Source: Holothuria leucospilota (Eukaryota). Taken from it: a stretch of DNA of 64,000 nt. Positions within the stretch are counted from its first letter, which is position 1. Every line of letters starts with the position of its first letter. The position numbers and the translations under genes are program-made. Positions 18,291 to 58,242 of the stretch are shown here, piece after piece. The notes beneath the pieces are model-generated. The model did not search any database. It had not been told where the DNA came from and saw only the letters and a program-made list of their open reading frames with translations. The stretch spans positions 36,098,802 through 36,162,801 of the forward strand of contig CM055964.1 of the NCBI GenBank assembly GCA_029531755.1. Direction: 5' to 3'.

Positions 18291-20451
18291 CATGGGCCGC
18301 TCTAAGAAATTTTGTTTGGGGGGGCAAACTCGAGTCCGTATTCAGGGAGGTTCGGAAGACCCCCCCAGCAATATTAATGGTCAGCTCCAGATAGTAATAT
18401 AGCCTCAACAGGAGCATGCATAGGCGTAGGGGCCCAAGTTGATTAGGGGGGAGGGCTGTAACGATCCGCCCGAAAAATAGAAACAAAAATTTCTGCGCGC
18501 TCTGCGCGCGTCCAAAATGTTAATGTACATATCATATAGGCATGCATCCGTTATCACACCACATGTCAATTACATACAATAATTTGCCATGTTACTAGCT
18601 ATTCCATATTGGTTATAATTCTGGGGGAAGTCGTTACCAAAATGCTGCTAATAATCAGTGGCTTAGCCAAGATTTCTCTCATGGGGTGGACAGGCACTAT
18701 GTTGTGTGATCGCTGGCCTGGGGGAGGGGTGTAAGGGGAGGGGGTGTCCCCCTCCCCTTTGAAAATTTTTTGAAAAATTAGGTGTCCATACATGCTATCT
18801 GGTGCCACATATGCTACCTTTGAAGTAAAATTTTGTGTTTTAGTTTAGGTACAAAAAAAAAAAAAAAATCGGCGTCAGTGACGGAGGCATGGCCTAATGG
18901 CTCCTCAAATACACCACTGATAATCATAATATATAAGTTGAACCATTAAAAACACACTGGTGAATTAATACCGTATATATAGGTACTGGTGCAATTCAAA
19001 TCAGAACTATGTTTTAATTACCAAGGAAGTTTTTTTAAAGTATCGACTTCCATTAAGGTACATATTGCATTATTTTTCTTTCAGTAGGTGCCCGAAAAAT
19101 TCTCAGAATATTGCCCGAATTTTCACAAAAATATTTTGTTGGGGGAGCTGCAGCCCCCAGCCCCCTGCCTCCTACGCCTATGGGAGTATGGTTATTATTA
19201 CGTATTACAGCGATGCCCCATGTAGTTTTCAAAAGCTCTTCACACACCATTTCGGGCAGTTAGTCATGAGAAGACTACTTTAAAAATAAATACAACCATA
19301 TCAACCGATCGCTACCGTACTACCATAGGGGTGGAGTAAGAGCCAAGTGAAATGGGCAAAGCGGCTTGATCCATTTGTATAAAATGAGCCCCACCTTTAA
19401 ATATTTTATTGTTTCTTTCATTGTGCCACAATATGTTTCAGCTTTGCCAAGAAGCCATAAAATGTTGGTTTTCTGGATTGTTTTCATAAACTAACGAAAA
19501 TTTCGAGCATGAAGACACTTGAAAATGATGAAATGATAGCACTAGTATTTTGGATCTCAGTACCGTTCCGAAACGAATTTTTTTACAGGGGGAGGGGAAT
19601 TCCCCTAACTCAGAACGACTTCTCATCCTATATACAAATAGCTAGGCCACTAGTCAAAATCTCATCACACTGAGCTTTGATTGACTGTTTGGTGTGTTTA
19701 TTTTAAACCAATTGAAACGGTATATACTTTAGCACAGCTGTGGAGAACCTTTTGCTTATAACAGGCCATTTGACAGTCATAAGACCGCTCGTGGGCCAAC
19801 GGCACTGTCAATTTGGACAAGGGAAGGGAAACCTCTCCTTCTATGGGAAACACAATACTTTTAGACTTCATGCCCGTTACAACTTTTTGTAGACAGATAC
19901 CTATGCTCATCTGGCCAGGTGACACCCTGGCAAAACTGCTTTTAGTCGTGGATGATAATCAACACGGCTAATGGGTTGTGTATCTAATGACCCCGAAAGC
20001 TCTGAAGTGTCTGCAAAACTGTAGGCATTTAACTCCAGCATTACTGTTACACTCTGTAAATGACATTATGATGCCTAAGCTAATCAGATTACAAATATCA
20101 CAACGTGATCATTTGTTTTGATTACCTTAGCTCGCACTAACGGCAGGTCCATTTGTGATGTCTGAAGTATATATACGGTAGTAGCAAACATGCAACTGTG
20201 AAAACGCGCGCGAAGCGCGCTGAAAAAATGGCGTTTTGAAAGCACTTTATTAATGTTTAACCTTCACATTGCATTGAGCGGTTATTCACTCCTTTAATTT
20301 TAAGCCCACTCAAGGAAAAGGGAGGGCCTAACCCATCTCGAATTACATGTTTTTTTATTTATTATTTTTATTTTTGAAAATTGAAGACCATGCTTTGCAC
20401 ACTTTTGGGGGGGCAAGTGCCCCCCCGTGCCCCTATGGCGAGCCGCTAATG
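18291..20451 (+). mobile_element. 2.16-kb non-autonomous DNA transposon, copy 1, hAT- or P-like, with imperfect 12-bp TIR (CATGGGCCGCTC ... GAGCCGCTAATG) and an 8-bp TSD
   Basis: Collinear at about 90% identity with 47287-49455. The flanking 8-mers are CCACAAAC (18283-18290) and CTACAAAC (20452-20459), a 7/8 match. A subterminal inverted GCGCGC-N3-GCGCGC motif lies at 18495-18510 and 20205-20220. Confidence 0.7.
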
Positions 20452-20634
20452 CTACAAACCACCTAGAGGTGGGTACAAAGAACCTCATCTGGCTGATAAT
20501 CTCATTCCAAATAATCTGAAAGTGTTTCCACAAGGTTGTTTAACCAAATCAGCCATATTTGACACAGAATGACTCAGAAGCCAGATTTTGTGCAAACACA
20601 CCCAATGACTGGTCAAAATGGAAGACACGAATAT

Positions 20635-21720
20635 TTATAAATTCAGCATTATCCCATTCAAACCTGGTTTATTCTTCTTTTTCTTTTTCCTCTTCTTCTT
20701 TCGCACCGCCTCTCTGTTCACTGCATTTGAGTCCTCAATCTTAGTGTCGTCTGTCTTGCTCATACTTTCATCCCCAGGCAAGTGCGAAGCTTTCATTGTC
20801 CCGTAGTTGCTATATAAACAGAAGTTAGGAGGCACTGTGGGGGACAACACTGGGTTGTCATCTGGGTACACATCCTCCACCTCTCTCTCCCTCTGCTGTT
20901 CCCCCTGTCTCTTCTGGGGTATCTTGGCTGATCTCTCTAATTTGGAATGTCCCAGAATGGGAGTGGACTCTGTTACAAGAACATCTGCTCTATGATTCTG
21001 ATAAATCGGTTCAGGGTCAGGACAATTCTTTAAATCAGCTTCAGACGGTTTACCAATTAGATTAACAGCATTCCCAAGTAACTTGTGTGGAGAGTGAGGG
21101 CCCACAGTGTTGACACCATCAGTATGGTCAGTAGCTTTTACATTTTTTTTGGTAGGCAGAATATCTCTTTTAAGCTTGACAGGACTTACAGAATTTTCCT
21201 TGGCCGTATGTAACTTTGGACCAAAGTGAATTTTATCGTCCACTTGTTCTGGTTTCTGTTTATGTTTTTCCTCACTAGTACTTCTAACTGACATCACTTC
21301 TAACTGTATATCATTGTCTCTCATATGAGAGTTACTACTGAAAGTACCATGCTTCTTCAGTGACAGGGCTTTGCCTCTATCTGATGTAACAGATACATTG
21401 TCTGTCCTTGCACCTACAGGGCAAGTACCCTTTTCATTCAAAGAAACATTTTTGTTGGACACTAGTTCCTCCCTCCCCTCCATTGAAACTGAGCCAGAAA
21501 CGGAACAAAAATTGTGGTTCACATCTGATGGACTGTAACAAGCTAAGTCTTCAGACTTCAATCCATTCAAAGAATTCGACAAGGATCCAAAATCATTTCC
21601 AAGGAATGTTTGAGAAAGTTTTGACATAAGGTCATCTGCAGCTTGAAAATCAGCCTTCAAGGTTTCAAGTTCTTCGGGATGTTCTAGAAGTTCACGTACC
21701 CTCTCTTTAATACTTTCCAC
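20635..21720 (-). CDS. 3'-terminal coding exon of an unidentified protein (coiled-coil-like N-terminal part, Ser-rich middle, polybasic KKKRKKKKKNK tail)
   Basis: On the minus strand the acceptor is ttctccattctttcag|GTGGAAAGT at plus 21720 in phase 0. The ORF then runs VESIKERVRELLEHPEELETLK... to a TAA ending at 20635. The first 66 residues of the track ORF (21721-21918) lie upstream of this acceptor and are presumably intronic. Confidence 0.45.
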   Translation of the reverse strand: MESIKERVRELLEHPEELETLKADFQAADDLMSKLSQTFLGNDFGSLSNSLNGLKSEDLACYSPSDVNHNFCSVSGSVSMEGREELVSNKNVSLNEKGTCPVGARTDNVSVTSDRGKALSLKKHGTFSSNSHMRDNDIQLEVMSVRSTSEEKHKQKPEQVDDKIHFGPKLHTAKENSVSPVKLKRDILPTKKNVKATDHTDGVNTVGPHSPHKLLGNAVNLIGKPSEADLKNCPDPEPIYQNHRADVLVTESTPILGHSKLERSAKIPQKRQGEQQREREVEDVYPDDNPVLSPTVPPNFCLYSNYGTMKASHLPGDESMSKTDDTKIEDSNAVNREAVRKKKRKKKKKNKPGLNGIMLNL

Positions 21721-22787
21721 CTGAAAGAATGGAGAAATATAAGAGTTAAAAATATTAAACATACTCAAAATATTCACAATTGTGACCTGACAACTCACAG
21801 CCCACCTCCTCAGCCCCCACATAATATGACCATCGGGATATTTCCCTCTGGTTAACTCCTGGGACAATCTCCACCCCAAACAACTTACCCCTGGACAACT
21901 CCCACCCATGACAATCACAGTTCAGACCACTTACACACCATAACATTTAGAGATGTCCTGGGTGGGACTTGTCCGGGTGGGAATTGTCAAGGAGGGATTG
22001 TCCAAGAACCATTCCAAATAATAAGCCAAAATGCCAAGACCTAAGAATATTCAAGTCTTTTGAGCAGGGCTTGACAAATCCCCTGCCCGACAGTCTGAGG
22101 CAAGAAAAAAAATCACTTGGGCAAGTGCACTATTCAATATCGTAGTCCGTCGGGCAATCACCTCTGCAGAGTCTTCTCCTCATAAGCAATTGGGCAAATT
22201 CAAACTGGACAAGTAAATAATCAAGTGGGCAAATGGGCTTGTCTACAGTAAAGGAAAATATTCAGTGTGTGTTTTTTGCTTTGATGATATTTTGAAAGAT
22301 GTCACAATAGTTTGGTGATTTTACAGTTCACCATACTTGGAGGACTATAGAGAGATAATAAAGACAATTTTATCAATGTCCAACTTATATAAAGGATGTT
22401 TTGGGCAGAATTTGGGGCTATTTTGGCCTTTTTTACCACCTATAAGTGTTACATAGGATGTGGAATAAAGTTATGATGTGAGTGGGACCTTTGCAGATGT
22501 GACTGATGCAGGTTCTTTGTCTTCATTCATAAATGTAATGTAATAAATGGTAAATGATAAATGAATATTTTTAGGTGCACAAACACTGCAAAATTTTATC
22601 AGCAATTTGGAGTAAAATTTTGAGATTTGTCTGTTCATCTGGATATTAAATCTTAATAGTTGATATTTTAACTGAAAGAAAAGATTTCCAGAGCTAAGGT
22701 TATGATGTAACACTTAACCTTGATCATGTGCAGTACCACAAATAAAATAATCCAGCAGTAAATGCATCATAGTCAATTGCGGAGCAC

Positions 22788-24655: not shown

Positions 24656-27139
24656 CTGGCTCCTCAAATCTTCCACAGACCACATTAATTCATGTCACCG
24701 GCCACATATGGCCCACAGGCCACCACTTGAGAACCTAGGATCTAATTGGTAACTTCATAATGACCTTTAAACCTGAAGGGTATACATTTAAAAAGGCCAA
24801 AGTAGTCCCTGGGCAGATGAAGACAAATCAAGGAAAATACAATGCTTTTGCTATTGTGTTTTTTTTTTTTTAAGAAACAAATCTAGGTAACAATGAGCAC
24901 TTGACTCAGTGATTTAGCCTGGTCAGTTCTCCAATGTGACATTCTGAATGCATGGCCTGGAGGAGAGGTCCAACAGGATGGGATGTCCCCCTTCCCTTTG
25001 GTATAATCTTTCAACTTGAGAGGTGCCTAGAAGGCAAATGGTGCTATATTTGGTCCAAATTTACCTTGGAAGGACAGGGGATATTCCCCCAACATTTGAC
25101 TAGGGGGGATGGCCCATGTAATCAACCCCCCCCCCATGTTACAAGTCTACAGATATTTGTATGCTGGAAAGTACATTTTATTCATTTTCTTCAATCTCTG
25201 CTTCATTTTCTATCACAAATGTTTCTCAAACTATCGGAATTTTAGCAAATCCTTCGCAAAATATAAAATTTTCGCGCCCGGAGCGCACTTCAAACCTTAC
25301 GTCAGTGTTATTGTTATCAATATCTTCCGATAGCAACTTTTGGAGAAGCACAGCAGCAAAAAGTTGAAAGTTTACGAATTAACAGGTAAAAGACTGGCTT
25401 GGCAGTGGCATGTAGGTTTGTTGGGCAATTGAAAGTGCCTCGATGCAGAGCCTGAATACAGGTTTGTCATGGAAATCGCGCATTTGTCACGGTGTGCACT
25501 CCATGTTATGACCATTATTAAGGTAATAATACATGAAACTATTCTGATCTCTGAACTATATCTGATCTCCAAACATCTGTGGGGACCTCACATCAATATG
25601 GGATCTTTCAATCTAATATGTAGCATGATATGGAAGGTTGAAAGTACATATCTGCCATTATACATTTTTCAAATGTTTTTACTGAGCACTTCGCGCGCAG
25701 CCATTATCAATACACATGGTGATTGTAAAAACACTTACGACAAAAACAGCATTCTGAAATGCACTTATTAGTCTTAACCCCTTTTGCCACGCTTATCAGG
25801 GAGGTCTAATATCACCTCCTTGCACCTATACTCTCCCTCACTCTCATTCCCCATTGCTGGCAGCTGTCCGTCTGGATTTTCATTCAAAATTAGTAAAAAT
25901 GCGAGTTGTAAAGTGTTCGGCCCCATACTCTACATTATCATTTGGGTTAGAGTTAGGTTAGATGAAGTTTTATGCCTCAGTTTCTAACCAATTATCATTT
26001 GGATGTCAGGTACTACAAATTATGTCATTGCCCCCATTTAATATGATTAATGCAGAGCTTACAGGAGGTCTTATGCAGGTATCTGCTAGCCTTAAATGCC
26101 CTTTCATAATGCACAATGAAGGAAAGGAAATATTTTGTAATAGTCCAAGAATGTTTCTGTGGACTCGTGTATTTTTGTCTTAAAACTTTCCCCAAATGGA
26201 AAGCAGTAAAACAGACAAAGGGGAGGAGGTTTCAGGTTTGTTAACATAGTATCTTTCTCTTAATTGACAACTTATTCTCCTCTTTTACCTTAACAAAAAT
26301 TAGCATTCACTAAATTATGGACATTTTCCAGCCATATATGATCAGTTCCAAAACATCCCAAAGATAACACCATTTTGCATCTAAAAGACCTTAAATTAAC
26401 AAACATTTCTTAAAGGGGAGGGGACCCCTTCCCCAGGACGGCACCTTTATGTAGTGACAAACGAAAGATCAAAACTGCTGTATACAAATGCTGGGACGCA
26501 TCAAAAATAAAGGTGCAATTTATGCAGACTTGGGGGAACTGGGGTATTATTACATCATCATCTACTGCGCCCACCAATCACAAAAAAACCTGGTGGTGCC
26601 ACTGATCTCAAACCAACTTGCAGGTCTTGTAATGACCTCCGAATTCAAAATCCAGTTGTCTTGGATGACCCTGTAAGTTGATCCCTGCCTTTTTAAGCTC
26701 AACAGGTCATTGTTGCTCTTGTACAATTTCAATCCAGTGTAGCTTATCAATGAGTTTTGTGCTAAAAATAGCATTTCGTAAATGTATAAATATACCAAAT
26801 ACCCAAGAACATTACCTCTGAAATTTACCTCTTAAAACAGTCTTCCTGGCACTTCTGAGACATTAAAACCCAGGAACTTCCGGGGGCTTAGCCCCCTGCA
26901 CCCCCACCGGGACTCTGACCCTGGACCCCGCCAGGGGTCCTTACGCGGGCCCCTGGACACCACCTGTTATGGGCTTTGCGCTGTGCGCTTACCGTGCACG
27001 GTTTGCATGCACATGTTGTAGGTTTGCTATAATTCACCCCATCCCCCCCCCCAAGTTGAAAAGAAATCTATGCCCCTGCATAGGACAACTGTAAAACTCG
27101 AACACTGCTCTTGTTAATTGTGAATCTACTGTACCAGGA

Positions 27140-29361: not shown

Positions 29362-30229
29362 TATTCTTTGGGTACAGCTTGAAATGAAGCGAATGTTTTC
29401 CCGACTCAACTACGTCCATAAACACAGTTATACGACCTTGTGAATTCCCAATTACAGGCCAGACTCAGCCATCTGAAATCCAAAAGCGAAAAAAAGTATG
29501 TGAGCGCGTCTCAAGATCATGACGTCATTGGAGGCACGGTTAGTAACACTGTACCAGGCAGCTCACCCATCGTTCTACACATCCAATCATGTGCATGCTA
29601 ACGCGTGTTAGATACAATACAGCAGCGCGCGTGACCAGTGACCACATTGTGAACTATGCGTCGTTGCGCGGTGACTGCTTACCATTCACAATAGCAACGT
29701 TACTGAACAGTTCACTGAGTAAAGGCGCGCTTGTTATGGACTGTCCATACATGTTCATAGCTGTTCTGTACAGCGCGCCCGGACCGCATTCTTTTGGCAC
29801 AAAAACAAAGCTGTTTATTATATGCAGGGAAGCTAAAGCACGGGCGCATATGCACGCGAACATATTGGCCAATGATATGCTTCGAAGCCCCCAACATGTT
29901 CCGCGCTTTGCGCTCTGTATGTTGGGCGGGTATTGTGATGTAATCCTTTTCATGAAGTTTCTAAGGTATGAAACATTCCCAAAGCGTTGTATTAGTTTCA
30001 CATCTAGATACGCGTCCTTACATAGCACAGTGCGGGGTGCCGCCAATTGCGTCATAAAAGTCAGGTGACCTGTTGCGGCATTTTTCGAAATTGGATTTCT
30101 GGACGTTTTTCTTCAAATTCTATTTATGCCGAACTGCGCCGGTTTTAATTGTGTTTGAGATGATACTTTAACAATACTGTACCCAATCTTGCAATGCACA
30201 AAAGTTATTTTGGCCATGTCATGCCCACT

Positions 30230-30968: not shown

Positions 30969-30976
30969 AGTCAGGG

Positions 30977-33852
30977 GTGAGGTCAGCCAAGAATGGGGGG
31001 GTTTCTGAGTTTTATTGTGCTCAGAGTGATTGCGTTAGTAACAAGGGGAAGCATGTAAATAGGGCTGTTTGTGGAATGAAGGTCATGTTTGCCAATGTTC
31101 GCAGCCTTTTCAATAAGTTCAAAGAGTTCCTTGCTCATATTTCCATAGACAATCCAGACATAGTTGGGGTTACCGAAACTTGGCTCCATAGCGATATCAG
31201 CAACTCTGAAATTCAGGTTCCTGGGTACAAAATTTTCAGGCAAGATAGGGCTGATACTGCCTGTGGTAGAGGTGGAGGGGTTTTACTGTATGTTAAGGAT
31301 AGCATAAATTGTGTTGATGTCACCAACAAGTTTTCTTCTGGATTTTCTAACTGCTTGTGGTGTGAAATTAGTTTTGTCAATGAGTCTTGCACTCCTTTAG
31401 TTGTTGGTATTATTTATCGTTCACCAAATTCTTGTGCTGATAATAAGTTCAGAGTTTGTTTGAAAGTTTTCGGAAAGTCTCTTCAAAAAGGGCAGTTGTG
31501 TTTGGGGATTTCAACTTTCCTGATATTGATTGGCATTCATGTACTAGTGGGTCACATGGGAGGGATTTTCTTGAGGCAGTGTCTGATGGTTTCTTTACCC
31601 AGCATGTTCTGTTTCCCACTCGTGAGGATAATTGTCTAGATCTGGTGCTAAGTACTGATGAAAACATGGTTAGAAATGTAGCTAGTGGTGGTAAGATAGG
31701 ATCTAGTGACCATGACCTCATTAGCTTTGAGTTACTTTGTTTCAACAAGCTTCAAGGTAGTGACAAAACTGTTTTAGATTTCAGCAAGGCTAACTTTACT
31801 CATGCTAAAGAGCTTCTTACCATAGATTGGGTTGCACGTTTGTCTCACTTAGGCCCTGCTGAAGCATGGAGTGTTTTTCGTAATATAGTTACTGACACTA
31901 CAAAGTTGTGTATCCCACTCAAGAAAGCTGTGGTTAAAAATAGGCCAATCTGGATGTCTAGAGAGGTACTTAGAGCAGCCAGGAAGAAATGTAAGTGTTG
32001 GCGTCGTTATAGGGTCAGTAAGAATTCTGATGACTTTGCAGTCTACAAGAAGCAGGAACTCTTAGTTAAAAATTTGGTTATTGACACTAAAGCTAAGTTT
32101 GAAAAGCAGTTGGCCAAGGAGGTTAAGGTAAATCCAAAATCTTTTCATGCCTATGTCAGGTCTAAGCAGAAGGTTAAGGAGGGTGTTGGGCCTCTCCAGG
32201 GTAATCAAGGCACACTAGTTAGTGATCATCAGGATATGGCTAATTTGTTAAATGATTATTTCGTATCTGTTTTTACCAAGGAATCATCTATTTTGGGGAC
32301 TTGTAGGGATTCTGATAATTCTTCTTTAGTTAGTGATGTTGTCTTCTCTGAAGAGTTGGTTTGTAATAAGTTGAAGAGTTTAAAAGCTAGTAAGGCTCCT
32401 AGGCCTGATGGGATCCATCCTGCCATTCTCCATGAATGCTCCAAGATTTTGTCAGTTCCTCTTTGCATTATTTTTCAGAAGTTTCTGGATTCAAACTTTG
32501 TACCTGCTGACTGGCGGATTGCTAATGTTACTCCAATATTTAAAAAGGGGGATCGGAGCTTGCCTTGCAATTATAGGCCGGTCAGTTTAACCAGTGTTGT
32601 GTGCAAAGTTATGGAATCTGTAATCAAGGATTGTTTGCTTAAATATCTTTTAGATAATGGGCTACTCAATCTGTCACAGCATGGTTTTTTACCGAGTAGA
32701 TCTTGTGTTACTAATTTACTAAGCTTTCTTGAGGATGTTTCCTTATCTCTTGATTCTGGTCACAGTGTTGATGTCATTTACCTTGATTTTCAAAAAGCCT
32801 TTGATAAAGTTCCATTAGGTAGACTTATGGTTAAACTGCATAGGTTAGGCATCAAGGGCAGTTGTGCTGACTGGATAAATTCATGGCTCAATGGTAGATC
32901 CCAGAGAGTTGTTGTTAATGGTAATTTCTCTTCTTGGAAAGAAGTTACTAGTGGAGTTCCACAGGGTTCTGTTCTTGGCCCGCTTCTTTTCTTAATTTTC
33001 ATCAATGATATTGATAGCTCTCTCACATCTAGTATTAGTAAGTTTGCTGATGATACTAAGCTCTATAGGAAGGTTAGTGATAAGGATGATGCCTCATTAC
33101 TGCAAAAAGACTTGGATAGGTTATTTTCATGGTCTCAGACTTGGCAAATGTCTTTTAATGCAGATAAATGCAAAGTCCTTCACTTTGGTCCTAAAAATTT
33201 CAGCTATGTTTACAACATGAATGGTAGTATTCTGAGTGATGTGTCTTTTGAGAAGGATCTGGGTGTAGTTATTACAGGTGATTTAAAGCTATCTAGACAG
33301 TGTGCAGCTGCTGCTGCTAGGGCTAATAGGGTGCTTGGATTGATCAAGAGGAATTTCAGTAGTTTTAGTAAAGAAATTGTACTAAATCTGTATAAGCAGT
33401 TGGTAAGACCCCACCTCGACTATGCAGCCAAGGCCTGGAGTCCCCTCCATGAAAAGGACAAGTTTCTTTTAGAGCAAGTTCAGAGGAGAGCCACTCGCCT
33501 TATACCCGAGGTGAGACACCTACCTTATCATGTCAGACTTAAGCATCTTGGGCTTACCACCCTGGAGTTGAGAAGGATTCGGGGGAACATGCTTCAGGTG
33601 TACAAATTTCTCTCTGAAAGGAATACTTTGTCATCTTGCAATTATTTAAAGGTTCAATGTGATTCTCGGGTTCGAGGCCATTGTAAGAAGCTAGTTAAGT
33701 GTTTTGCAAGGCTCGACATTAGGAAGTTCAGCTTTTCTCATAGAGTTGTTGACGAGTGGAATAGTCTGCCTGAGTGGGTAGTTAACTCTACATCTGTACA
33801 CTGCTTTAAGGTTAACATTGACAAGTTCTTCCATAACTGTGGTAGGATCTAA
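30977..33852 (+). CDS. LINE ORF2 (APE-type endonuclease plus reverse transcriptase) with one apparent frameshift at about 31440-31460 between the 220-aa and 798-aa track ORFs
   Basis: The 30977 frame ends in ...VVGIIYRSPNSCADNKF then becomes nonsense. The 31456 frame continues ...RAVVFGDFNFPDIDW.. through the RT and C-terminal tail to the stop at 33852. Confidence 0.85.
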
Positions 33853-34587: not shown

Positions 34588-36515
34588 TCGACCAATATGA
34601 TGGTAGGCCTAAGTTAGGACTAACTTTAACGTTACATTGTGAGAGACAAGAAAACAGTTGCTACAAGCCTTTCTATTATGAAAGTATATTCTTGGACTTC
34701 ATCTGTGGTACTATATGACAGGAATCTAGGATACACCAAAATCCAATCTTCCAACGGCCAGGCTAGGCCTAACAGCACGGTCTGCAGACACACAGCTGTA
34801 ACTGTATAGGCCTAGCCTAAATGTATCATAGTAACAGGACTCCACTGGCTTATTGTCACTGCTCTAACCTTTGCATTGTTATATGCTGGTGTTACTGTTT
34901 GTGTTAGTGACATTAATTCCTACCTTAGCTTAGCCTAACGTTAGGCAGCGCCCCATCACTAACAGAAACCCTGTACACTGAAATGCGTAGCCTAAGCTGG
35001 TAACTAACATTGTTGCTGTTGCTACAATGTTACACAGTGGCCAACACTGAATTGGGTAAACAGACCTTCAATGAAACAGACCTCAATCGATCATACCTTG
35101 TTCTGGCCAAATTCAGCTGGAATAGAGCTATCATAAATATCACCGAACTTATCAGCATCGCCCTCTTCGATTGATATAGCAAGGGAAATGGCCAGACGTT
35201 CACTTTCTATGTTTAAGTGTTTACTGTCACCTGCAGTAGGCCTACTTGCCATGATCAGTCCCACAGTACAAGCAATGGCATATTCACACACTAGTACAGG
35301 GTTAGTGTAGTACACACAAACGTTATTACTATACTCACACTGCACATTATGTTTGTGTAGTAGGTTAGGTCAGCTAGGCGTGCTGTAGAGGTCAGTGAGT
35401 ATTTTGCTGTACATAGGCATTCATACAGTCATAGGTCGTAGTATGTTACGGTGGCCCACTGGGGACCTACTGTATATATAATTTATCCATAGACATGATG
35501 CATTGACGTAACGAAACGTCATTTTGGAGGCACAACGGTCACGGTGAAGTACACTGCAGGCCCACGGTCTTGCATTGAAGGATGAAAAATTTATTACGAG
35601 ACCAGCATTTTTGGAACACAAATATAAGAAGAAAAAATGGAAAATCTCGCACCATTTTGCATCTCGAGTCCTTGAAATGGGGTCGGTCGGAGACACGTCC
35701 AGGCGCGGTTTTACGGAAGGGGGGGGGGCTTTGGGGACTCAAGCCCCCCCAAAATTCGCTCAAGCCCCCCCCAAAAAATTCCGAGGTTGTATGTTATCTT
35801 CATGCTATATTTGCGTGTATTGAGAAAAACAAAATTGTCCAATACATTTGTGCACATCTTAGTCCAGTGGATTTAGTTTCTCAAATGTGTCATGCAAGAT
35901 AGGCATGTGATCACGTTTCTTGTATCCACGTCCACGTACGTACACCTTTGTTTTGACTGCATGTAGTGCGACAGCCACGCTTCGCCTTAGTACTGTATGA
36001 CGACGGTAGGCACAGTGCGGGCGCCTACTAGCTTACCCAGCTGCATTCTTACGTTTTTTGGTCTTACAACATAATGACACTCCTAAACGCTACATCTACG
36101 AAACCTTCCCAACAACCGCTAGTATCCCTCCTCTCATGAACAAGAGAGAGTAGGTAAATACGTTTCGCTATTCAGGGTCTGGAATTAATCTCTTCTTTTA
36201 TTGTGTTGCCCTAATGATGGGAATAAAAAGCCAATCTTAGGTTAAAGTCCACAGTCAAGAGTTGACCAGAAATCACAATAGACGAATCGGTGTTTGTTTT
36301 ATTTTAATGTTACTATATAAAATCACCACCAGGTCAAATAAAACAATGTCAGTCGGTTCAATTTTTTGGACCGATGACCGGTATGCTGTCGCAAATAAAA
36401 AGCAAACATTCGACTTCAGTCATCTGCTCTGACAGAGTATTTTTGCCAGTCACGCCACAGTTATATAGGAAACACAACATACAGCCTTTTAACCCCCTCC
36501 CCTAGTCGAAATAGC

Positions 36516-36725
36516 GGTGGCGCCAGGTGGGGGAAGGGTTCATGCCCCCCGTCGGGAAGGCTGGCCCCCTATCGGGGAAGTTTTACAGTTTCATCGGGGA
36601 GTCTTAGTCGAAAGTATGCAGTCCCGGACGACAACTAGTCGCCCTGACGGTTTACCTGTTTTTTACTCTCAATCGGATAATGTCTCTACTAAGAACCCCA
36701 AATTTTCAGCGCGCTACGCGCGCTG
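36516..36725 (+). mobile_element. Partial (5' half) copy of the CAGGGGTGGCGCCAGGTGGGG hAT-like MITE family
   Basis: It starts gcggtggcgccaggtgggggaagg...ccccgtcgggaagg...gtcgccctgacggtttac and ends at the GCGCGC motif at 36707-36725. Confidence 0.45.
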
Positions 36726-36781
36726 TAGAGTCACTCTTTTTTTCTTCAATAAGTCCATTCCACATAGCAGGATAGCACAAG

Positions 36782-39555: not shown

Positions 39556-39972
39556 CAGGGGTGGCGCCAGGTGGGGGCAGGGGAATTTCCCCCATCGAGA
39601 AAGGCTGGAACCCCTCTCTCTCGTCAGCTGGTCAGGTAAATATTCCAATTTCTTCTTAGACATTTAAGGTATGATAAAGTATTACTAGTTGCCGCGACGG
39701 TTTACTTGAGTTGGTTCTCATGGAGGGCAGATTACATCCTTGCATTTTCAAATTTGCGTCAATGTTATCCCCCAATTGCTATTTTTTTCAATAAATTTCC
39801 AGGATTTTCTGGTGCTCTTCGTGCTCCTTAATTTTGCTTTCGGCGTCCTTTCGGCAACCCGTGATGTTTACTGGGGCTTTGGAATGCTTCTCCCTCCCCA
39901 TCGAGGAGCTTGGCCCCGGTCGGACAAATCCTTGCTCCAACGCGGCTACCTCGGCCCTGAGCTCCACCACGT
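39556..39972 (+). mobile_element. hAT-like MITE copy of the CAGGGGTGGCGCCAGGTGGGG family; diverged 3' end
   Basis: It starts caggggtggcgccaggtgggggcagggg at 39556. The interior has the family motifs cgacggtttac and ccccatcgaggagcttggcccc. Confidence 0.5.
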
Positions 39973-41448: not shown

Positions 41449-43766
41449 ACTTAGAAGAAAAAATTCCACAATACCCACATGACGCACGGGACTGTTTTTC
41501 AGAGAGGGCGGTAATATTTGCCCGACTCCAGACCTAATATAACTGTCCAATTTTTCGCCCGACTGAGACAAAATATCTGCCATATTTAGTCAGGTTTCTG
41601 ACATCTGGGGAGGCCGCCCCCAGCACCCCCGGCCCGTACGACCATACCTACCCCATCATTAATTATACATCATGGGCAAGTTTTAGGAATATTTTATTAT
41701 TCCTCTAGGTTCTCTTCAGATTTCTCTTTTTCACCATTCATTTCCCCTTTTCATTGTTTTTTCTGACAAGGACAAGGAACGGGTTCCCTAGGCCTCCCCT
41801 CAGTCCGCGCCTGTACAATACTCTATAAAACATTCTCTTTTTTTTGTGATAAAACACCCTAGTAGATGGAATGTTAATAGGTTCCCATTATGATCTTCCT
41901 ACGGTCTGTCGTGTTGAATTTGCTTTCCTTTTCAAATGATTCATTTTTTTCAAAAAGTATTTTTTCAAAGCACGTAAAAACAAGCATGTGCTCCAATACT
42001 TTTTGATGAAGCCTTGAAAATTGCGGAGCACTTGTTCCTCAGAATTGTCCCCGTGCCCCACGGAGGCGAAAGGTTTTTGCCCTGGAAATTTCCCTAACTG
42101 GCACACAGTCATGACATAAAGTTTGCAAACCGACATTTTTGCCTTAAAATCAACATTTTTTGCTCAGGTGGGCTGCAACCCTACAGACTCCTGTCTCATA
42201 CTACTATGGTGCTTCCCTTGCAAGATGTTTTATGCAATCATGGGTGACGCTAAAGAGGGGCAGAGGGGGCTACATCCTCTTCCCTAGGGGAAAATGAGAA
42301 TTATACAGAAAGCCAAAGTATAACATCTTTTATTACATCTTTTTTTATAACTGTTGATGCATTGTGGGATTCTTTTTTTTAATTTCGTCGGAGAGCCAAG
42401 TTGAAACAAACGGTAAAGAGTAATCCCAATTAGCAACGATCACACTCCCCGTTGGGTCAACTTTTTATTCTTAATAATAGTAGATTCTTCTAAAAGATAC
42501 CAAGACTTTTCTACACACTTCCCGCCATGAAAAGTTTCGTTGTCTTTGTTTCATGTTGTGGTTGTATATGATTACACAAAAGTGGCAAAACCAGACATAG
42601 ACCTACGTAGCTCCCACACTGAGTTTTCTGAAAAAGCCGGGTATTCCTTCCTCAACCGCATACCCTTAGCTGTACGCTTGTATTCGTCGATCGGTAGCCT
42701 GCATAGGGGCATGAAGCGGAAAAGCCTGAGTGCAGTCCCACACCCTAGCCAAACAATGGGGACAGACTTCATGTAATGGTTGTTTACCATTTAGAGAAAG
42801 TGTCAGAGCAAACACGTTCACCTTCCGTGCCCTTGTGAAATGTCTTTCTGTACCCCAAAGCTTATTTGTAGGACAGACGAATGCATATCATGCATGTTAC
42901 ACCCTTTAGAGGCCAGCCTACCTAATGTGGCTCTCATAATTCTTCTATGCACCTTGCACGAATTTGAGCGCGCTTTTGAAGCTCTTGTTTTCCGATAAAT
43001 ATCAGCTCTAAACTGGACCGGTACATCAAGTTCGTATATTGTGCAAAATGTGCTATGACACCATACAGATAAAAGGTCATGGTTAGTCAGATGTTGCATG
43101 GTGACGGACCTACCATTCTGGGGACCATTGGTGCTAAAAAGTTTACAAAGCCCTGCCCAGTCAAGGAAGCCATCCCTGTTCGGGGAAATCTGATAGATAT
43201 TTCTCAGCTCGAAACATTGTTTTGAAAATTAAAACACATGCATACGCTCACTTTCTAACGATTCATATTTTATATAAGAAATGTACCTACTGACAAGCGA
43301 ACCTGTAAACTTGGTATAAAATTACATTGTCTATACCTAGTTAAATTTTGGGAGATGCATCTCCGTCACCAACCCCCAACCCCCCTCGTAATGTCAATGG
43401 CTTCGGCGTTGAGCTTAAAGGCAGTAGGCAGTCACCCCAAACAGAGTGAGTGTATCCTGTCACTCTAGTTCATGAATGGCCTATTTTGATCATGTGACAC
43501 TATTTTTGTTAGTGAATTGTGGAATTCAAGGAGAATTTCGCCTTGCTTTACCTATTGTTTGTAATAGTTATGTTCAAAACGTCTTCAGAGGTGCTTGTAA
43601 TGCAATAAAAGAAGATTTGCAAGAGTTTGCTGATTTTTCAAAGAAAATTTTGGGGCGATTGAGTAAACTGTTTTTCTGGCTAGAAAACATATTTAAAACA
43701 CTTTGTATTAATTTCTGTTTTACACTTCTTTCGTTAAAAGAAATCTCGAGCTATGACACCGTTTGA

Positions 43767-47286: not shown

Positions 47287-49455
47287 CATGGGCGGCTCTA
47301 AGAAATTTTGTTTGGGGGGGGGGGCAAACTCAAGTTCGTATTCAGGAAGGTTCGGAAGACCCCCAGCAATAATAATGGTCAGCTCTGGATAGTACAATAG
47401 CCTCAATAGGAGTATGCATAGGCGTAGGGTCCCAAGTTGATTTGGGGGGGGGGGGGCTGTAACGATCTGCCCGAAAAATAGAAACAAAAATTTCCGCGCG
47501 CTCCGCGCGCGTTCAAAATGTTAATGTACATATCATATAGGCACGTTATCACACCGCATGTCAATTACATACAATAATTTGTCACGTTACTACCTATTCC
47601 ATATTGGTTATAATTCTGGGGGAAGTCGTTACAATAATGATGATAATAATCAGTGGTGTGGCCAAGACTTCTCTCATGGGGGTGGGGCAGGCACTATGTT
47701 GTGTGATCGCCGACCTAATTTTTTGAAAAATTAGGTGTCCATACATGCAATCTGGTGCCACATATGCTACCTTCGAAGTAAAATTTGTGTTAAAAAATTT
47801 ACCGTACGTATTTTAGGTACTAAAAGGAAAAAATAGGCATCACCCCCTACCCTTTGAAAATTTTTGAAAAATAAGGTTTCCTTACATGCAATCTGGTGCC
47901 ACATATGCTACCTTTGAAGTAAAATTTTGTGCTTTATTTTAGGTACTAAAAAAAATCGGCGTCAGTAACGGGGGAATGGCCTAATGGCTCCTCAAATACA
48001 CCACTGATAATCATAATATATAAGTTGAACCATTAAACAACACACTGGTGAATTAATACCAGATATATAGGTAATGGTGCAATCCAAATCAGAGCTTTAT
48101 TTTAATTACCAAGGAAGTTTTTTAAAGTATCGATTTCCGTTAAGCTACATTATTGCATTATTTTTCTTTCAGTAGGTGCCCGAAAAATTCTCAGAATATT
48201 GCCCGAATTTTCACAAAAATATTTTGTTGGGGGAACTGCAGCCCCCCAGCCCCCGCCTCCTACGCCTATGGGAGTATGGTTATTATTATGTGTTACAGCG
48301 ATGCCCATGTAGTTTTCAAAAGCTCTTCAAGAACCATTTCAGGCAGTTAGTCATGAGCTGACTACTTTAAAAATAAATACAACCATATCAACTGATCGTT
48401 ATCGTACTACCATATGGGTGGAGTAAGAGGCAGGTGAAATGGGCAAAGCGGCTTGATCCATTTGTATAAAATGAGCCCCACCTTTAAATATTTTATTGTT
48501 TCTTTCATTGTGTCACAATATGTTTCAGCTTTGCCAAGAAGCCATAAAATGTTGGTTTTCTGGATTTTTGTTCTTAAACTAACGAAAATTTCGAGCATGA
48601 AGAAACTTGAAAACGATAAATAGATAGCACTAATTATTTTGAATCTCAGTACCGTTCCGAAACGAATGCTTTTAAAGGGGAAGAGGAATTCCCCTAACTC
48701 AGAACGACGTCTCATCCTATATACAAATTAGCTAGGCCACTAGTCAAAAGTCTCATCACACTGAGCTTAGATTGACTGTTTGGTGTGTTACTGTTTATTT
48801 TAAATCAATTGAAACGGTATACTTTAGCACGAAGGTGGAGAACCTTTTGCTTATATCAGGCTACTTGACAGCCATAAGACCGCTCGTGGGCCAACGGCGC
48901 TGTCAATTTGGACAAGGGAAGGGAAACCTCTCCTTCTATGGGAAACACAATACTTTTAGACTATAAGCCCATTACAACTTTTTGTAGACAGATACCTATG
49001 CTAATCTGGCCAGGTGACGCCCGGGCAAAACTGCTTTTAGTCGTGGATGATAATCAACACGGCTAATGGGTTGTGTATCTAATGACCCCGATAGCTCTGA
49101 AATATCTACAAAACTATGGGCATTTAATTCCAGCATTACCGTTACACTCTGTAAATGACATTATGATGGCTAAGCTTATCAGATTACAAATAAGCAACTG
49201 AGAAAACGCGCGCGAAGCGCGCCGAAAAAATGTCGTTTTGAAAGCACTTTATTAATGTTTAACCTTCGCATTGCATTGGAAAGTTATTCACTTCTTTAAT
49301 TTTAAGCCCACTCAAGGAAAAGGGAGGGCCTAACCCATCTCGAAGTACATGTTTTATTTTATTTATTATTTTCATTTTTGAAAATTGAAGACCATGCTTT
49401 GCAAACTTTTTTGGGGGGGCAAGTGCCCCCCGTGCCCCTATGGCGAGCCGCTAAT
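47287..49455 (+). mobile_element. Copy 2 of the 2.16-kb hAT/P-like non-autonomous DNA transposon, with an 8-bp TSD
   Basis: Collinear with 18291-20451. The flanks are ATATTATG (47279-47286) and ATATTATA (49456-49463). It carries the internal tandem duplication ttttgaaaaattaggtgtccatacatgcaatctggtgccacatatgctacc at 47712-47790 and 47850-47940. Confidence 0.7.
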
Positions 49456-49901
49456 GATATTATACATGTCTCAAGACACAAATGTGCACCTTACAAAACA
49501 ATATGTAAGAATTTGGTGCTACATATTCTTGTCAAATCTGATGCACCTATTTCATGATGTAACTACAGTTGGAAACAAACATGCCGTACCTTTCGGGGAC
49601 GTAGCTCCTTTGGGAGAACAGAGCCCCTTCGGGAGAAACGTTTGGTTTCGCCCCTTGGCTCTTTCCCAGAGAGTCGAGGGTTACTTAAGAAAGAGTAGTT
49701 CATATCAGTTCCGATCGATGCAATTTTTGTTCACAAAAGGGATTTTCTCTTATTGTCCAAAAAGTTGGGGACTTGTACTCACATGTCGAGTCTAAGACTT
49801 TGCAACCGGCCTTGATCTTTTAAATGTATATTAGAGAACAGAGGGTGCCATCTTAATTTCCCATCATTGTTGACAGTTAGGCCTACCCTTTTTTCCGACA
49901 G

Positions 49902-51777: not shown

Positions 51778-52185
51778 CAGTGGTGGCGTCAGGTGGGGAG
51801 CAGGGGGCCATGGCCCCCCGTCGGGGAAATTTTCCGGTTTCGGGAAGCTACTATGTATACGATAAAATATGTAGTCCCTGACAACGGGCAGTCGCCCCAA
51901 CGATTTACTTAATTTTGGTCTAAATTTGGGCAAATTCTTCAATAAAACCCCCAGATTTTCCAAGTTTCTTCGTAAAAACCCAATTTTTTCAAATTTTCCG
52001 TGGTAAAAGCCCAACTTTTTCAATTTTTTCCATTCAGAGTTTGAAATTTTCGGCGCTCTTCGCGCGCCAAAATTTTACTTCAAACATCGTTTCGGCACTA
52101 CATCGCCCTCATCGAGGCTTCGGGTTGCTGGCCCCTCGTCGGGGGAGCTTGGTCCCCTGTCGGGCAAATCCTGGCTCCACCCCTG
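51778..52185 (+). mobile_element. hAT-like MITE of about 408 bp with TIR CAG(G)TGGTGGCG(C)CAGGTGGGG ... CCTGGCTCCACCCCTG and a central aaattttcggcgctcttcgcgcgccaaaatttt motif
   Basis: Collinear with 56383-56803. The flanking 8-mers are GTCTAGAA and GTCCAGAT, a 6/8 match. Confidence 0.7.
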
Positions 52186-54967: not shown

Positions 54968-55285
54968 ATCCATAGGCGTAGGAAGCTTTTCGCGACTGGG
55001 GGGCGGAATCTTGTTTCGGATCGCCGTCCTGGGGAGGGGTCTAAGGGAAGGGGGTTTGGTCCCCCTCCCCTGTGGAACATTTTTGGGTATTTAAGGGGCC
55101 TCAGATGCAATTTGGTGCAACATTTTGGACAAACTGTAAGGAAAATTACTGCAAATTTTTGACATTTCTTACAGAAGCTTTTTGCCCTTGGATCTGGGGG
55201 GGGGGGGCGGAAGCATACTTCAGCCACCTCACATTTTTGACTGGGGGCCCCCAGTCCCCCCGCTTCCTACGCCTATGTAACGATC
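54968..55285 (+). mobile_element. Short relative of about 320 bp of the 2.16-kb element's internal segment, bounded by inverted (A)ACGATC-CATAGGCGTAGGAAGC
   Basis: 54961-54986 is the reverse complement of 55262-55290. The interior matches 18700-18790 and 19100-19180 of the 2.16-kb element, including ggggaggggt.taaggg.agggggt, cccctcccct and cctacgcctatg. Confidence 0.45.
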
Positions 55286-56382
55286 TTACCTTGTCTTTAT
55301 TGAGAGACGCTTAACTCCATGTGGTAAAACATTCATAAGATGCATTAAAATATCATATCGTGTAAATTTGTAATGGGAAAAACTAAAAAAGGAAAAAAAA
55401 TAATGAAAATATTCAATGAAACCATAGTAAATATTGATAATTAAGGGTTTTATGCATTGATTGGAGTTCAGTGATGTTTATTGTAAATTTATTCAAAATA
55501 TTTACCACACTAGACTCAAGGTAAAGCCTCCCCTGAAGGTGAAGTACACATGTATAGTACCAAGATTGTTGAAGTTTGGGTGAAAATAGACTCGGGACCT
55601 TTGACCCTCCTAATTACCATGTTCGGGTAAATTTAAAAGGTGACAACCAACAGAAAATGAAAGCTGACATCCTAAGGAACATTTTAAGGGTAGGTGTCAA
55701 CTTTTACAAAGTTGTACCGGGGGGGTCGAAAATTTTCAGACTTCGCCGCTAGACTATTCCATTTTCCCGACAGACTGGATTTCTTCAAAAGACAATGGCT
55801 TACCGAATAGTATAGTCTGAGAGATACCTTCTGACACAGCCCTTAATAGACGGGTTGGGAAATTAGGTACTTACGGTCGGGCCACAAGGTCCAGGGGCGG
55901 ATGCAGGTTTTGACTAAAGGGGGGGGGGTGCGATATAGCTACTATCTAAGCGGAGCGCCACCATGAGTTGGCGCGAATTGTACAGAGAAAATTTTTGGTA
56001 CAGAAGACCCCCAGATTGCAGGAAATGGCATTTCCCACGCATTTCTTAGGCTCTTTGATCCGTACAAAAACAAGCTTTCATTGAAATTCCCTGTGTCAGA
56101 AATTTTATGATAAATGTCCTGTCAGAAAGTTGTCTCCCTCCTTGTGAGAGATGCATGCTATACAGCCCGATAACGATCTTGGGCGTCAGGAGTTCGGAGC
56201 ATTCAGTCATTTGTTGTGCTCTCTCTAGGCACTCACAGTGACTCACTCAAAGTTGCTCGCTTGTGCTCAATAAAGAAAATTTGGTTTCTCTTTTTGAAAT
56301 CTTTTGAAAGTATTTTGGTATTGGGGTCTTAAAATTAACTGGTAGGGTTAATCGCATGCATGGGATTTTTGTTGTCTCGCAA

Positions 56383-56803
56383 GGGTGGCGCCAGCGGGGG
56401 GCCAGGGGGGCCATGGCCCCCGTCGGGGAAGGCTGCCCCCCACCCCGTCGGGGAAATTCTTCGGTTTCGTCGGGGAGCTGTTATGTATACGATAAAATAT
56501 GTAGTCCCCGACAACGCCCAGTCGCCCGACGATTTACTTAATTTTGGTCTAAATTAGGGCAAATTCTTCAATAAAAACCCCAAATTTTCCAATTTTCTTC
56601 TTCAAAGCCCCATTTTTTTCAAATTTTCCATGGAAAATGCCGGCAATTTTTTCAAATATTCTCCAAAAAGAGCCCAAAATTTTCGGCGCTCTTCGCGCGT
56701 CAAAATTTTCCTTTATTTCATTCGTTGAGACTTTGGGTTGCCGCCCCCCCCCCCCCCGTCGGGGAGCTTGGCCCCCCTGTCGGGGAAATCCTGGCGCCAC
56801 CCG
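56383..56803 (+). mobile_element. hAT-like MITE copy (same family as 51778-52185). An inverted partial copy follows at 56826-56935
   Basis: It runs gggtggcgccagcggggggccagggggg...aaaattttcggcgctcttcgcgcgtcaaaatttt...cctggcgccaccc. Then ggttggcgccaggatttgcccaacggggg is the inverted end of another copy. Confidence 0.7.
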
Positions 56804-57059
56804 TTGTCTCGTTATCTAAGCGGAGCGCGACCATCGGTTGGCGCCAGGATTTGCCCAACGGGGGGGGGCAGACTCCCCGACGACGGGCCAGCGACCCGAA
56901 GCCCCGACAGCCATGATGTCGTCGAGGAATTGGTGAGGAAGAATTTGAAGAAAACTTGTGTACTAGATTATGACATTGCGGGGTATATATTTCATAATAT
57001 TTGTATATACTAGAGAAATATATTTCCGCCCTGATTTATCGTTTTTCCTAGAATCTAAA

Positions 57060-57880
57060 CTGTGAAATTTCAAAGCGCGCGAAATTTTTTGGATAGGTCT
57101 ACACTAAAAAGAATCTGTACTTATTTGAAGCATATATAGATATATAGGTCAATTGTCAAGGCAGTTGGGCCATATCGGGCATAACCTACGCTGAACTTCC
57201 CTCCTCGAGTCACTAGCAGTACCGCACGACAGACACAAGAGAATATTAACTAGGTTTAGCAAAGTAAGATGAAATGACCGACATTTACATAAATCCATGT
57301 ATTCTACTTATATTAAGTTACTTGTAAAGGTGGAAAGGGTTTGTACTATATTTAGCTATTAGTAACGGAACTGAGGAAGAGTGGACAAAGTGGACCGAAA
57401 ATGTTGGATTTTAACGTAGAAATGCCCCTTTTGAAAGCCAAAATAAGTAAACCGACCAGGTCGGTAGCGACAGCATTTTCCCGACAGGGGACCGGATCAT
57501 GCAGTGACCCGAAGTTCCGACAGCCCCTATGTCGAGGGGGTGGTAAGGAGGGGATATGAAGGAGCCTAAATATCCCAAGTCATTGCAGGGCATATTTTGC
57601 ATAATATCACTGAATACTTCATGAGCCGAGTTGCGCACTGATAGTGTACTTTTGAATCTGAAACGTAAAGTTGCAAAGCGCGCGAAGCGCGCGAATTTTT
57701 TTTGGTTTTACACAAAAAATATATGTAATCATTAAGAACAAAAAGAAAAAAGAAAAACTGTAGGGGTTGTAGACCACATCAGGGATAACATATATTTTAT
57801 CGAAACCACCTGGACTACCCTATGAAATGCCCAGACTTTTCTCCTTGAGTCGCTCACCAACTGACCGTACCGCATGACAC
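57060..57880 (-). repeat. Paralogue of the host repeat at 36944-38760, without the Foldback element. It carries an inserted MITE fragment at about 57430-57560
   Basis: See the matching segments listed for 36944-38760. Confidence 0.6.
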
Positions 57881-57989
57881 ACACAAGACAACAGCAAGTA
57901 GACTTTGCGATATGGGATGGAATTTACGACCTCTACCTACATGTTACTTGTTACGTTTGACAGGTCTTGTGCTATTTAGCAATGTATAA

Positions 57990-58242
57990 TGGAAGTACTG
58001 AAGAAACTGGAGTGACTCTACCGCGCGCCTAGCACGCCGAAAATTTTGGGTTCTTTTAAGGGATATTGTCGTCTTGAGAGCAAAAAACAGGTAAACCGTC
58101 GGGGCGACTTGTCGCCGTTTGGGGTCTACACACTTTACCGTATCGACTAAGACTCTCTGACTGTAAAAAAAACTGTAAAAAACTGTAAAACTTCCCCGAC
58201 GGGGGGCCATGCCCATCCCTGTCCCCCACCTGGCGCCATCAC
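57990..58242 (-). mobile_element. Partial hAT-like MITE copy in reverse orientation
   Basis: ccgcgcgcctagcacgccgaaaattttggg, then gtaaaccgtcggggcgacttgtcgcc, then cttccccgacggggggccatgccc, then cccccacctggcgccatcac. This is the reverse complement of the family layout. Confidence 0.5.

Follow-up and report, generated by a model that had tools for sequence, protein, structure and literature searches.

The 64,000-nucleotide window analysed here, from the sea cucumber Holothuria leucospilota (NCBI GenBank assembly GCA_029531755.1, contig CM055964.1, positions 36,098,802 to 36,162,801 of the forward strand), contains recurrent copies of a palindromic motif, GCGCGC-N3-GCGCGC. All of them sit within non-autonomous DNA transposons that end in terminal inverted repeats (TIRs) and are bordered by target-site duplications (TSDs) of 8 bp. 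The motif occurs in at least five carrier families in the window, rather than in the single transposable element (TE) family to which, as the original prediction had allowed, every copy might have traced. Coordinates of the motif copies and their carriers, counted from the first letter of the window, are collected in Table 1.

We found eight exact matches to GCGCGCNNNGCGCGC in the window (the copies marked exact in Table 1) against 0.00 in dinucleotide-preserving shuffles, and 24 occurrences of GCGCGC against 1.09 expected, bearing out the claims that the hexamer is rare and that its paired form lies beyond chance. The window is, as described, about 40% GC (~0.40) and depleted in CpG, with an observed/expected ratio of 0.58; in a second eukaryote, a control locus of 23 kb that is comparable in GC content and CpG depletion contained zero GCGCGC. 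A mismatch-tolerant search recovered the motif positions listed by the original prediction and added the near-exact copies at 52053, 56686, 58023 and 38193 to the exact ones. When we built a covariance model of the motif from 28 instances and ran it on the window, it returned 12 matches with E<1e-3, plus 57065-57092 (E=0.03), 25262 (E=0.2) and a few marginal ones, all confined to 18.4-58.1 kb. With 12 solid copies, one single-arm copy and two to four decayed copies from this model, the earlier count of about 15 stands. Three GCGCGC at 29625-29778, upstream of a long interspersed nuclear element (LINE), fall outside the motif context. The heptamer GCGAAGC occurs 10 times in the window against 2.2 expected, with 6 of the 10 within motif copies.

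Orienting 12 copies by the strand bearing the T-rich loop before comparing their flanks, we found that the whole motif spans ~30 nt and is asymmetric: (CCC)AAAATTTTC(N)-GCGCGC-TTC-GCGCGC, commonly followed by CGAAAATTTT, or, as a search pattern, AAAATTTTCN-GCGCGC-N3-GCGCGC. The loop is TTC in 8 of the 12 copies, and TCT, TCC, TAC or TAG in the remainder. The 5′ flank CCC-AAAA-TTTT-C-(N) is conserved in 12/12 copies, always on the T-rich-loop strand, whereas the 3′ flank is variable, and the covariance model scores the motif orientation ~27 bits better than its reverse. Together, the conserved asymmetric flank and the orientation score indicate a module of ~30 nt, not the bare, symmetric palindrome set in A/T runs that had been described. 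T-run and GC core are separated by a spacer that differs by 0-1 nt among copies, the palindrome is longer in some of them (AAAATTTTCG...CGAAAATTTT), and copies such as that at 38725 can also be read as a perfect tandem, (TTCGCGCGC)2. The consensus TTTTCGGCGCGC equals a 12-nt stretch of ODN 2395, a synthetic CpG oligonucleotide of class C that acts as a TLR9 agonist; this is almost certainly coincidental.

[quoted passage not shown] TSDs match at 7/8 positions for 18419-19182 and for both 2.16-kb copies. The 8-bp TSD length typical of hAT elements is perfect at 40543-41448, 54971-55277 and 47417-48270, and in the foreign element L012 (L-numbers denote loci retrieved as motif-bearing contigs). 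A YARNG-type start (CAGNG or TAGNG) is seen in the TIRs CAGGGGTGGGGAAC, CAGTGGTGGCG and CAGGGGCGGATCC, while the TIR families CATAGGCGTAGG and CATGGGCCGCTC begin with CAT, which with an 8-bp TSD would fit the P superfamily too. Judged by these termini, the carriers are probably hAT-like MITEs.

Table 1. Motif copies and carrier elements in the window (E values and bits are from the covariance model).
Feature	Position	Strand	Sequence	Remarks
Motif copy	18495-18509	+	exact arms, loop TCT	in nested MITE C1, 76 nt inside its left TIR; 34.1 bits
Motif copy	20206-20220	-	exact, GAA on + strand	231 nt inside right TIR of 2.16-kb D1
Ambiguous site	25272-25288			near the copy at 25684; weak, E=0.23
Decayed copy	25684-25698	+	GAGCAC TTC GCGCGC	weak, E=4.8
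Motif copy	36709-36723	+	exact arms, loop TAC	~200 nt inside left TIR of composite 36505-38932
Decayed copy	38193-38207	+	GCCCGC TTC GCGCAC	paralog of 57678; E=7.6e-4
Motif copy	38725-38739	+	exact	193 nt inside TIR CAGGGGCGGATCCAGG, which ends at 38932
CpG-to-TpG decayed copy	39812-39826	+	GTGCTCTTCGTGCTC	within old MITE 39553-39960
Motif copy	41099-41113	+	exact	within 906-bp MITE
Single-arm copy	42968-42973	+	AATTTGA-GCGCGC-TTTTGAA
Motif copy	47496-47510	+	exact, loop TCC	within nested MITE C2; paralogous to 18495
Motif copy	49208-49222	-	exact	paralog of 20206, in D2
Motif copy	52053-52067	+	GCGCTC TTC GCGCGC	one arm mismatch; in 408-bp MITE
Motif copy	56686-56700	+	GCGCTC TTC GCGCGT	in sister MITE; T mismatch in common with 52053
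Single-arm copy	57075-57080	-		exactly 9 bp (one GCGCGCTTC unit) lost relative to paralog 38725; E=0.03
Motif copy	57678-57692	-	exact	internal to 1.4-kb element
Motif copy	58023-58037	-	GCGCGC CTA GCACGC	paralogous to 36709, with one mismatch; motif-strand loop TAG
D1, 2.16-kb non-autonomous element	18291-20451		TIR CATGGGCCGCTC / CATTAGCGGCTC; TSD CCACAAAC/CTACAAAC	holds nested MITE C1
D2, second composite copy	47287-49456		TSD ATATTATG/ATATTATA	93.5% identical to D1
C1, nested MITE (764 bp)	18419-19182		TIR CATAGGCGTAGG; TSD GGAGCATG/GGAGTATG
C2, nested MITE (854 bp)	47417-48270		TIR CATAGGCGTAGG; perfect TSD GGAGTATG
C3, 307-bp MITE	54971-55277		TIR family CATAGGCGTAGG; perfect TSD TAACGATC	without the ~240-bp motif-bearing segment
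Composite element	36505-38932	+	left TIR (CAG)GGTGGCGCCAGG-type, right TIR CAGGGGCGGATCCAGG	three motif copies; interrupted by foldback array 37122-38162
1.4-kb paralog of composite	56832-58244	-	both TIRs	~83% identical; three motif copies, one single-arm
408-bp MITE	51778-52185	+	TIR CAGTGGTGGCGTCAGG / CAGGGGTGGAGCCAGG	subterminal GTCGGGGA-type repeats
Sister of 408-bp MITE	56379-56806
Sister of 408-bp MITE, old copy	39553-39960
906-bp MITE	40543-41448	+	TIR CAGGGGTGGGGAAC; perfect 8-bp TSD ACTTAGAA	single copy in window

The two 2.16-kb copies have different 8-bp TSDs, so this composite transposed as a unit. Four motif copies had been assigned to it, of which 20206 and 49208 do lie in the 2.16-kb element, but 18495 and 47496 belong to the nested 764/854-bp MITE. 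The motif is also not central in the 408-bp MITE, its distances to the two ends being 275 and 118 nt; this family has the TIR CAG(T/G)GGTGG(C/A)G(C/T)CAGG and subterminal repeats GTCGGGGA/TCCCCGAC. Both the composite element at 36505-38932 and its 1.4-kb paralog have two of their three motif copies in an internal duplication. The foldback-type insertion, present in the former and not in the paralog, comprises ~23 palindromes of 41/61 nt (CGAAAAnnTTTTCGnACGTACG...) between inverted arms of GGAAGCGTATTGTTGTCACGT, and its CGAAAA..TTTTCG units are similar to the A/T flanks of the motif. The TSD octamer of C3 also occurs inside its longer relatives, where it adjoins their motif-bearing segment (18461, 47462).

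BLAST similarity between carrier families is limited to ~30-49 bp around the motif. Most carrier TIRs vary on one theme, CAG[GT]GGCGGATCCAGG-like (CA[GT]NGGCGNA..CAGG), with the variants CAGGGGCGGATCCAGG, CAGGGGTGGCGCCAGG, CAGAGGCGTAGCCAGG, CATAGGCGTAGG and CATTAGCGGCTC, and a G7CAA(N)TGC7 palindrome adjoining the TIR of the 2.16-kb element is found in foreign elements as well. The carriers are thus distinct families of one lineage, which is probably hAT-like. The original prediction had distinguished at least four families; these do differ in TIRs, TSDs and internal sequence, but they are mostly variants of one TIR lineage. With TIRs related across most families, much of the motif sharing is explained by common descent. 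At the same time, the ~30-nt limit of inter-family similarity and the recurrence of the motif in foreign MITE-like contigs point to the motif itself being constrained. Short subterminal repeats, e.g. GTCGGGGA, are peculiar to each family, and these are more likely than the motif to be the family-specific transposase sites. G-run/C-run palindromes (G7CAAGTGC7; GGGGGCCATGGCCCCC) and a G-quadruplex-like GGGGGAGGGGTGTAAGGGGAGGGGG adjoin TIRs, the features lying at 20407-20426, 49414-49431, 51803-51818, 56406-56421 and 18719-18756; since G7CAA is common to the foreign loci L104 and L012, it is a second feature conserved in the lineage.

Outside H. leucospilota, an exact 21-mer, TTTTCNGCGCGCTTCGCGCGC, was found at 75 metagenomic loci and 3 loci from viral collections. 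About 40 of these are high-GC prokaryotic contexts, roughly the number expected from composition and terminator-like palindromes. After de-duplication, 26 motif contexts remained in contigs of <=50% GC, where the zero-order expectation is ~2e-4 per Gb at 40% GC. A few of these low-GC contigs are prokaryotic or phage-like (L058 and L061 are archaeal, and L035 is densely coding). Most of the rest, in all more than 20 contigs, are MITE-like, with family-specific short-repeat arrays, G/C runs and no long ORFs, and they carry the same A-run/T-run flank as the copies in the window. Several foreign contigs have related TIRs, among them L104, L012 and L026, and there 40-58 nt separate the motif from one of the TIRs. 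L104, a scaffold of 1 kb that was binned with a sponge symbiont, has the TIR CAGTGGCGGATCCAGG plus G9CAATTGC9; L012 and L026 share the TIR CAGGGGCGGATACAG, and L012 has the TIR CAGAGGCGTAGCCAGG with a perfect TSD, GTAAACAG. Sequence matches of this kind indicate a wide distribution of the motif.

A 24-mer that includes the A-run, AAATTTTCGGCGCGCTTCGCGCGC, had 0 matches in 596 Gb of prokaryotic genomes. The 21-mer had 35 matches in prokaryotic genomes, mainly high-GC, some of them repeat families in single metagenome-assembled genomes (MAGs). In a Clostridia MAG the 21-mer is the core of a multi-hairpin repeat (L092, L099, L101, L105, L107, L109, L114); in a bin labelled 'delta proteobacterium' it sits in a ~200-bp conserved intergenic element with a gaaaaatTTTTCGG flank (L085, L089, L102, L106, L115); and in a Rhodocyclaceae MAG it is flanked by CTAGGGG repeats (L097, L108, L060). 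These multi-copy prokaryotic elements may reflect convergence or mis-binned DNA. Two further loci, L005 and L065, contain a 33-bp tandem satellite with a related hairpin unit, TTTCTT-CGCGC-TGC-GCGCG-CAAA, one unit of which has the canonical TTC motif, and L003 is a long near-perfect foldback with arms of >100 nt and the motif exactly at its centre.

Within the window, paralogous copies differ inside the motif itself: we observed GCGTGC, GCCCGC..GCGCAC, CpG-to-TpG change at 39812 and a 9-bp arm loss at 57075. Individual loci are accordingly unconstrained, which places selection, if any, at the level of the transposon. Motif CpGs were kept at 25/32 sites compared with 71/130 elsewhere in the paralogs (Fisher p=0.016, with non-independent sites). 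It is well supported that the motif is a TE-borne module of this lineage, multiplied by transposition and decaying in place, and not a host signal. It had also been suggested that the motif is a small mobile module acquired repeatedly. We found no TSD or termini around it, and rejected a nested micro-element, as no TIR or TSD surrounds the motif-bearing segment that is missing from 54971-55277.

Several features of the motif are compatible with recognition as a structure. Positions flanking the forced stem are complementary above permutations, at 16/26 (p=0.019) and 20/40 (p=0.003), and variant copies retain both pairing and the TTC loop: CGACGCGC..GCGCGTCG; ATCGCGCC-TTC-GGCGCGAT, which reads CCGAAGG on the other strand; and GGGCGCGC..GCGCGCCC. 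Among unforced secondary copies, one has a non-CpG double change, and one, in L047, swaps GCGAAGC for CCGAAGG. Both heptamers are documented DNA mini-hairpin cores, and d(GCGAAGC) is extraordinarily stable (PMC13037366). The canonical motif has GCGAAGC on its GAA strand. The conserved asymmetric flank and loop suggest that recognition would be sequence-specific too.

The surroundings of these TEs include a host gene. The ORF at 12078-14093(-) is 100% identical to the H. leucospilota protein HOLleu_10653, encoded on a 66-Mb chromosome (genome paper: PMC10120082), and the ORF at 20635-21918 (-) is likewise long and exon-like. The motif-bearing TEs, lying between and after these long ORFs, may occupy introns or intergenic DNA. 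A CR1/jockey-like LINE at 30977-33852, with endonuclease and reverse transcriptase, has 97% identity to a protein annotated on a different H. leucospilota chromosome. The window also holds a 145-bp tandem satellite (9285-11450; 15 copies, 89% matches) and many short repeats.

We propose, with a probability of roughly 0.5, that the motif is a ~30-nt conserved cis-element of one widespread hAT-type lineage that aids transposition as a structured docking site. The case for a function in the transposon is that 21-30 identical, CpG-rich nucleotides persist while their surroundings have diverged. The abundance of copies in the window reflects its dense load of non-autonomous derivatives of the lineage, MITEs and composites; each copy came in with its transposing carrier and was then left to decay neutrally, with selection on the transposon, rather than on the host locus, presumably keeping the element. 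The GC clamp, set between easily melted A4T4 tracts, could extrude as a hairpin or cruciform whose GAA strand contains d(GCGAAGC), and a transposase or an architectural host protein might read this structure, or the sequence, near one end of the element. Alternatively, the motif might act as a hinge that lets both ends of a short element meet. Either way it would improve mobilisation without being strictly required. We rank its possible roles as docking site or hinge first, promoter of the transposase gene second and recombination-prone passenger third; we consider it unlikely to be an RNA signal, a host element or a simple repeat.

A number of observations weigh against a docking site. The motif had been predicted to be subterminal, and in most carriers it does lie ~40-340 bp from an element end, but usually near one end only, at varying distance from and orientation to the nearest TIR; transposition sites are not usually placed in this way, and a signal linked to a gene, for instance a promoter, would fit. 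C3 has an intact TSD and no motif segment, so the motif is not obligatory, and the two 408-bp MITEs have the stem mismatch GCGCTC in common, so mobility does not depend on a perfect hairpin. Covariation is modest, with 11 cells changed on both sides, a level reached by 7/500 shuffles, and most stem positions are invariant, so that structure and sequence recognition are not told apart. Predicted DNA folding energies only modestly beat dinucleotide shuffles (z -0.1 to -4.4), a comparison made uninformative by shuffles that preserve GC/CG content; the energies are nearest-neighbour predictions, which omit the sheared G-A pair. The metagenomic instances were chosen by exact pattern, with stem and loop fixed beforehand, and the repeat families of the 21-mer in a few prokaryotic MAGs show that convergence on this hairpin can happen. 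Finally, no autonomous element was recovered: the window holds no transposase, and tblastn searches of the window and loci with hAT C-terminal queries, namely the Ac C-terminal region and a consensus-like version, were empty.

One-end placement favours a regulatory role, for example as a promoter, in the transposase gene of the parental transposon. On this account, which we hold possible but doubtful, the motif would be a site for a host factor (E2F/DP-like or another CGCG-binding protein), conserved in autonomous elements for expression in proliferating or germline cells and kept passively by MITEs in their terminal 50-300 bp. Read inward from the nearest end, at least five families have the same order, TIR, GCGCGC-GAA-GCGCGC, CGAAAATTTT, and three have the opposite. 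A promoter would also account for sequence conserved beyond pairing, including the asymmetric flank and loop, and for the motif arrays (3 copies in L063, 3 in L047 and 3 in the 1.4-kb element), which resemble enhancer-type site clusters. The canonical E2F octamer TTTSGCGC is present in three copies, but the motif consensus departs from it and the octamer occurs at only 3 of ~13 copies (4 in the window, 1.45 expected); as a general reading we rejected E2F, since TTTSGCGC is found only at 38721, 52064(-) and 57077(-), plus the ambiguous 25270, and is not enriched. Complementary changes in the two arms would be unexpected for a transcription-factor site, as would the variable T-run spacer, and no transposase gene was recovered to give polarity.

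The motif could instead be a functionless passenger inherited from a common ancestor, perhaps reshuffled by recombination or by abortive gap repair re-annealing at the GC palindrome, with young copies merely looking conserved. Common descent of the carriers is real, given their shared TIR themes and G7CAA subterminal motifs. The position of the motif relative to homologous ends is not the same in the 2.16-kb element as in L104, the element without a motif and those with imperfect stems still transposed, and the exact 9-bp arm loss marks a slippage-prone site. Against this, sequence between TIR and motif has diverged past alignment, yet 21-30 nt are identical across families and foreign contigs; a cluster of five to six CpGs should erode early in so CpG-depleted a genome; and random recombination predicts shared flanks of variable length, of which none is seen. 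We hold a mere passenger to be doubtful.

Extending the docking-site reading, we also considered a lineage-wide 'licensing' module, by which short hAT-type elements of distant phyla would need a GC mini-hairpin between A4T4 tracts to synapse their ends or to time transposition, similar hairpins in some prokaryotic repeats being convergent. The mini-hairpin would serve as a structure-specific docking site or hinge, recognised by a conserved domain of the transposase or by an architectural protein of the host. The phyla concerned would be echinoderms, probably sponges, and soil and marine eukaryotes. We regard so general a requirement as rather unlikely.

An RNA-level signal, with the hairpin and T-run serving as a terminator for RNA polymerase III or another polymerase, or as a feature of a small-RNA precursor, seems very improbable: the GC hairpin does adjoin T4 tracts, and a AAAATTTT tract likewise comes after the hairpin when the opposite strand is read, but C(N) or CGAAAA separates the T-run from the stem, the conserved GAA loop is specially stable in DNA and not in RNA (PMC13037366), and Rfam and tRNA scans of the window gave zero matches. 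A bacterial-type terminator was rejected on the same geometry, the T-run not adjoining the stem. Hardly more credible are exapted binding sites forming a host regulatory element, with all copies internal to TEs and decaying at individual loci, or a (TTCGCGCGC)n slippage micro-repeat, to which the tandem reading of 38725 and its paralog with a single unit lend some colour but which cannot explain the conserved non-repeat flank CCCAAAATTTTC or why copies in the window essentially always have two arms and never form longer arrays. We also discarded a sequencing-adapter artefact, as the motif is not known to resemble adapter sequences and is present in many independent assemblies.

If the motif is functional, it marks a widely distributed hAT-type lineage, offers a handle on how very short elements are mobilised (by way of promoter capture, a cofactor from the host or the structure of the DNA) and provides a convenient sequence tag with which such MITEs could be annotated in the genomes of invertebrates. 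Should it be a passenger and no more, what is left is ordinary TE annotation of a sea cucumber chromosome. In either case, the motif does not serve these loci as a regulatory signal of the host.

Both MITEs prone to form structures and conserved cis-elements in subterminal positions are already known, and the motif itself is without a description in the literature we searched. Searches with motif and TIR strings found no TE paper, only primers, the synthetic ODN 2395 and a promoter sequence from C. elegans, and a keyword search (hAT, MITE, subterminal, palindromic) returned nothing relevant. The motif resembles d(GCGAAGC)/d(CCGAAGG) mini-hairpin DNA in having G-C pairs that close a GAA turn; such mini-hairpins are known naturally from the promoters of phage N4 and from single-strand origins of phages and plasmids, with no eukaryotic transposon role described (PMC13037366). 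In the motif, by comparison, the hairpin is predicted. MITEs have reportedly amplified E2F sites in Brassica, and there as here a T-run and a CGCG core would have been multiplied by MITEs; the motif differs in having the octamer in few copies and an extra base in its consensus. Helitrons lack TIRs and TSDs, and their hairpin lies ~10-12 nt from the CTRR 3′ end. The Helitron 3′ subterminal hairpin is, like the motif, a GC-rich palindrome near a transposon end and a cis signal (PMC4778049), whereas the carriers have TIRs and 8-bp TSDs, with the motif 40-340 nt from the end. We rejected a Helitron end, finding these termini and no CTRR end at ~10-12 nt from the hairpin. Structure-prone MITEs (Tourist/Stowaway-type; microhomology-mediated MITE birth, PMC3814204) resemble the carriers in being short, non-coding, multicopy and bounded by TIRs and TSDs. 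Some carriers also fold back on themselves (L003), but in place of the general whole-element folding of MITEs we see a sequence-conserved mini-palindrome common to several families. In Ac/Ds, subterminal AAACGG repeats accompany ~240-bp ends required in cis. The subterminal repeats of hAT elements (Kat1/hAT, PMC4763223) are like the motif in being short and conserved, in lying a few hundred bp from TIRs in elements with 8-bp TSDs, and in being kept in non-autonomous derivatives. Known hAT subterminal sites are, however, short, family-specific and multicopy at both ends, whereas the motif is a single 30-nt GC palindrome, usually at one end, common to families that each have repeats of their own.

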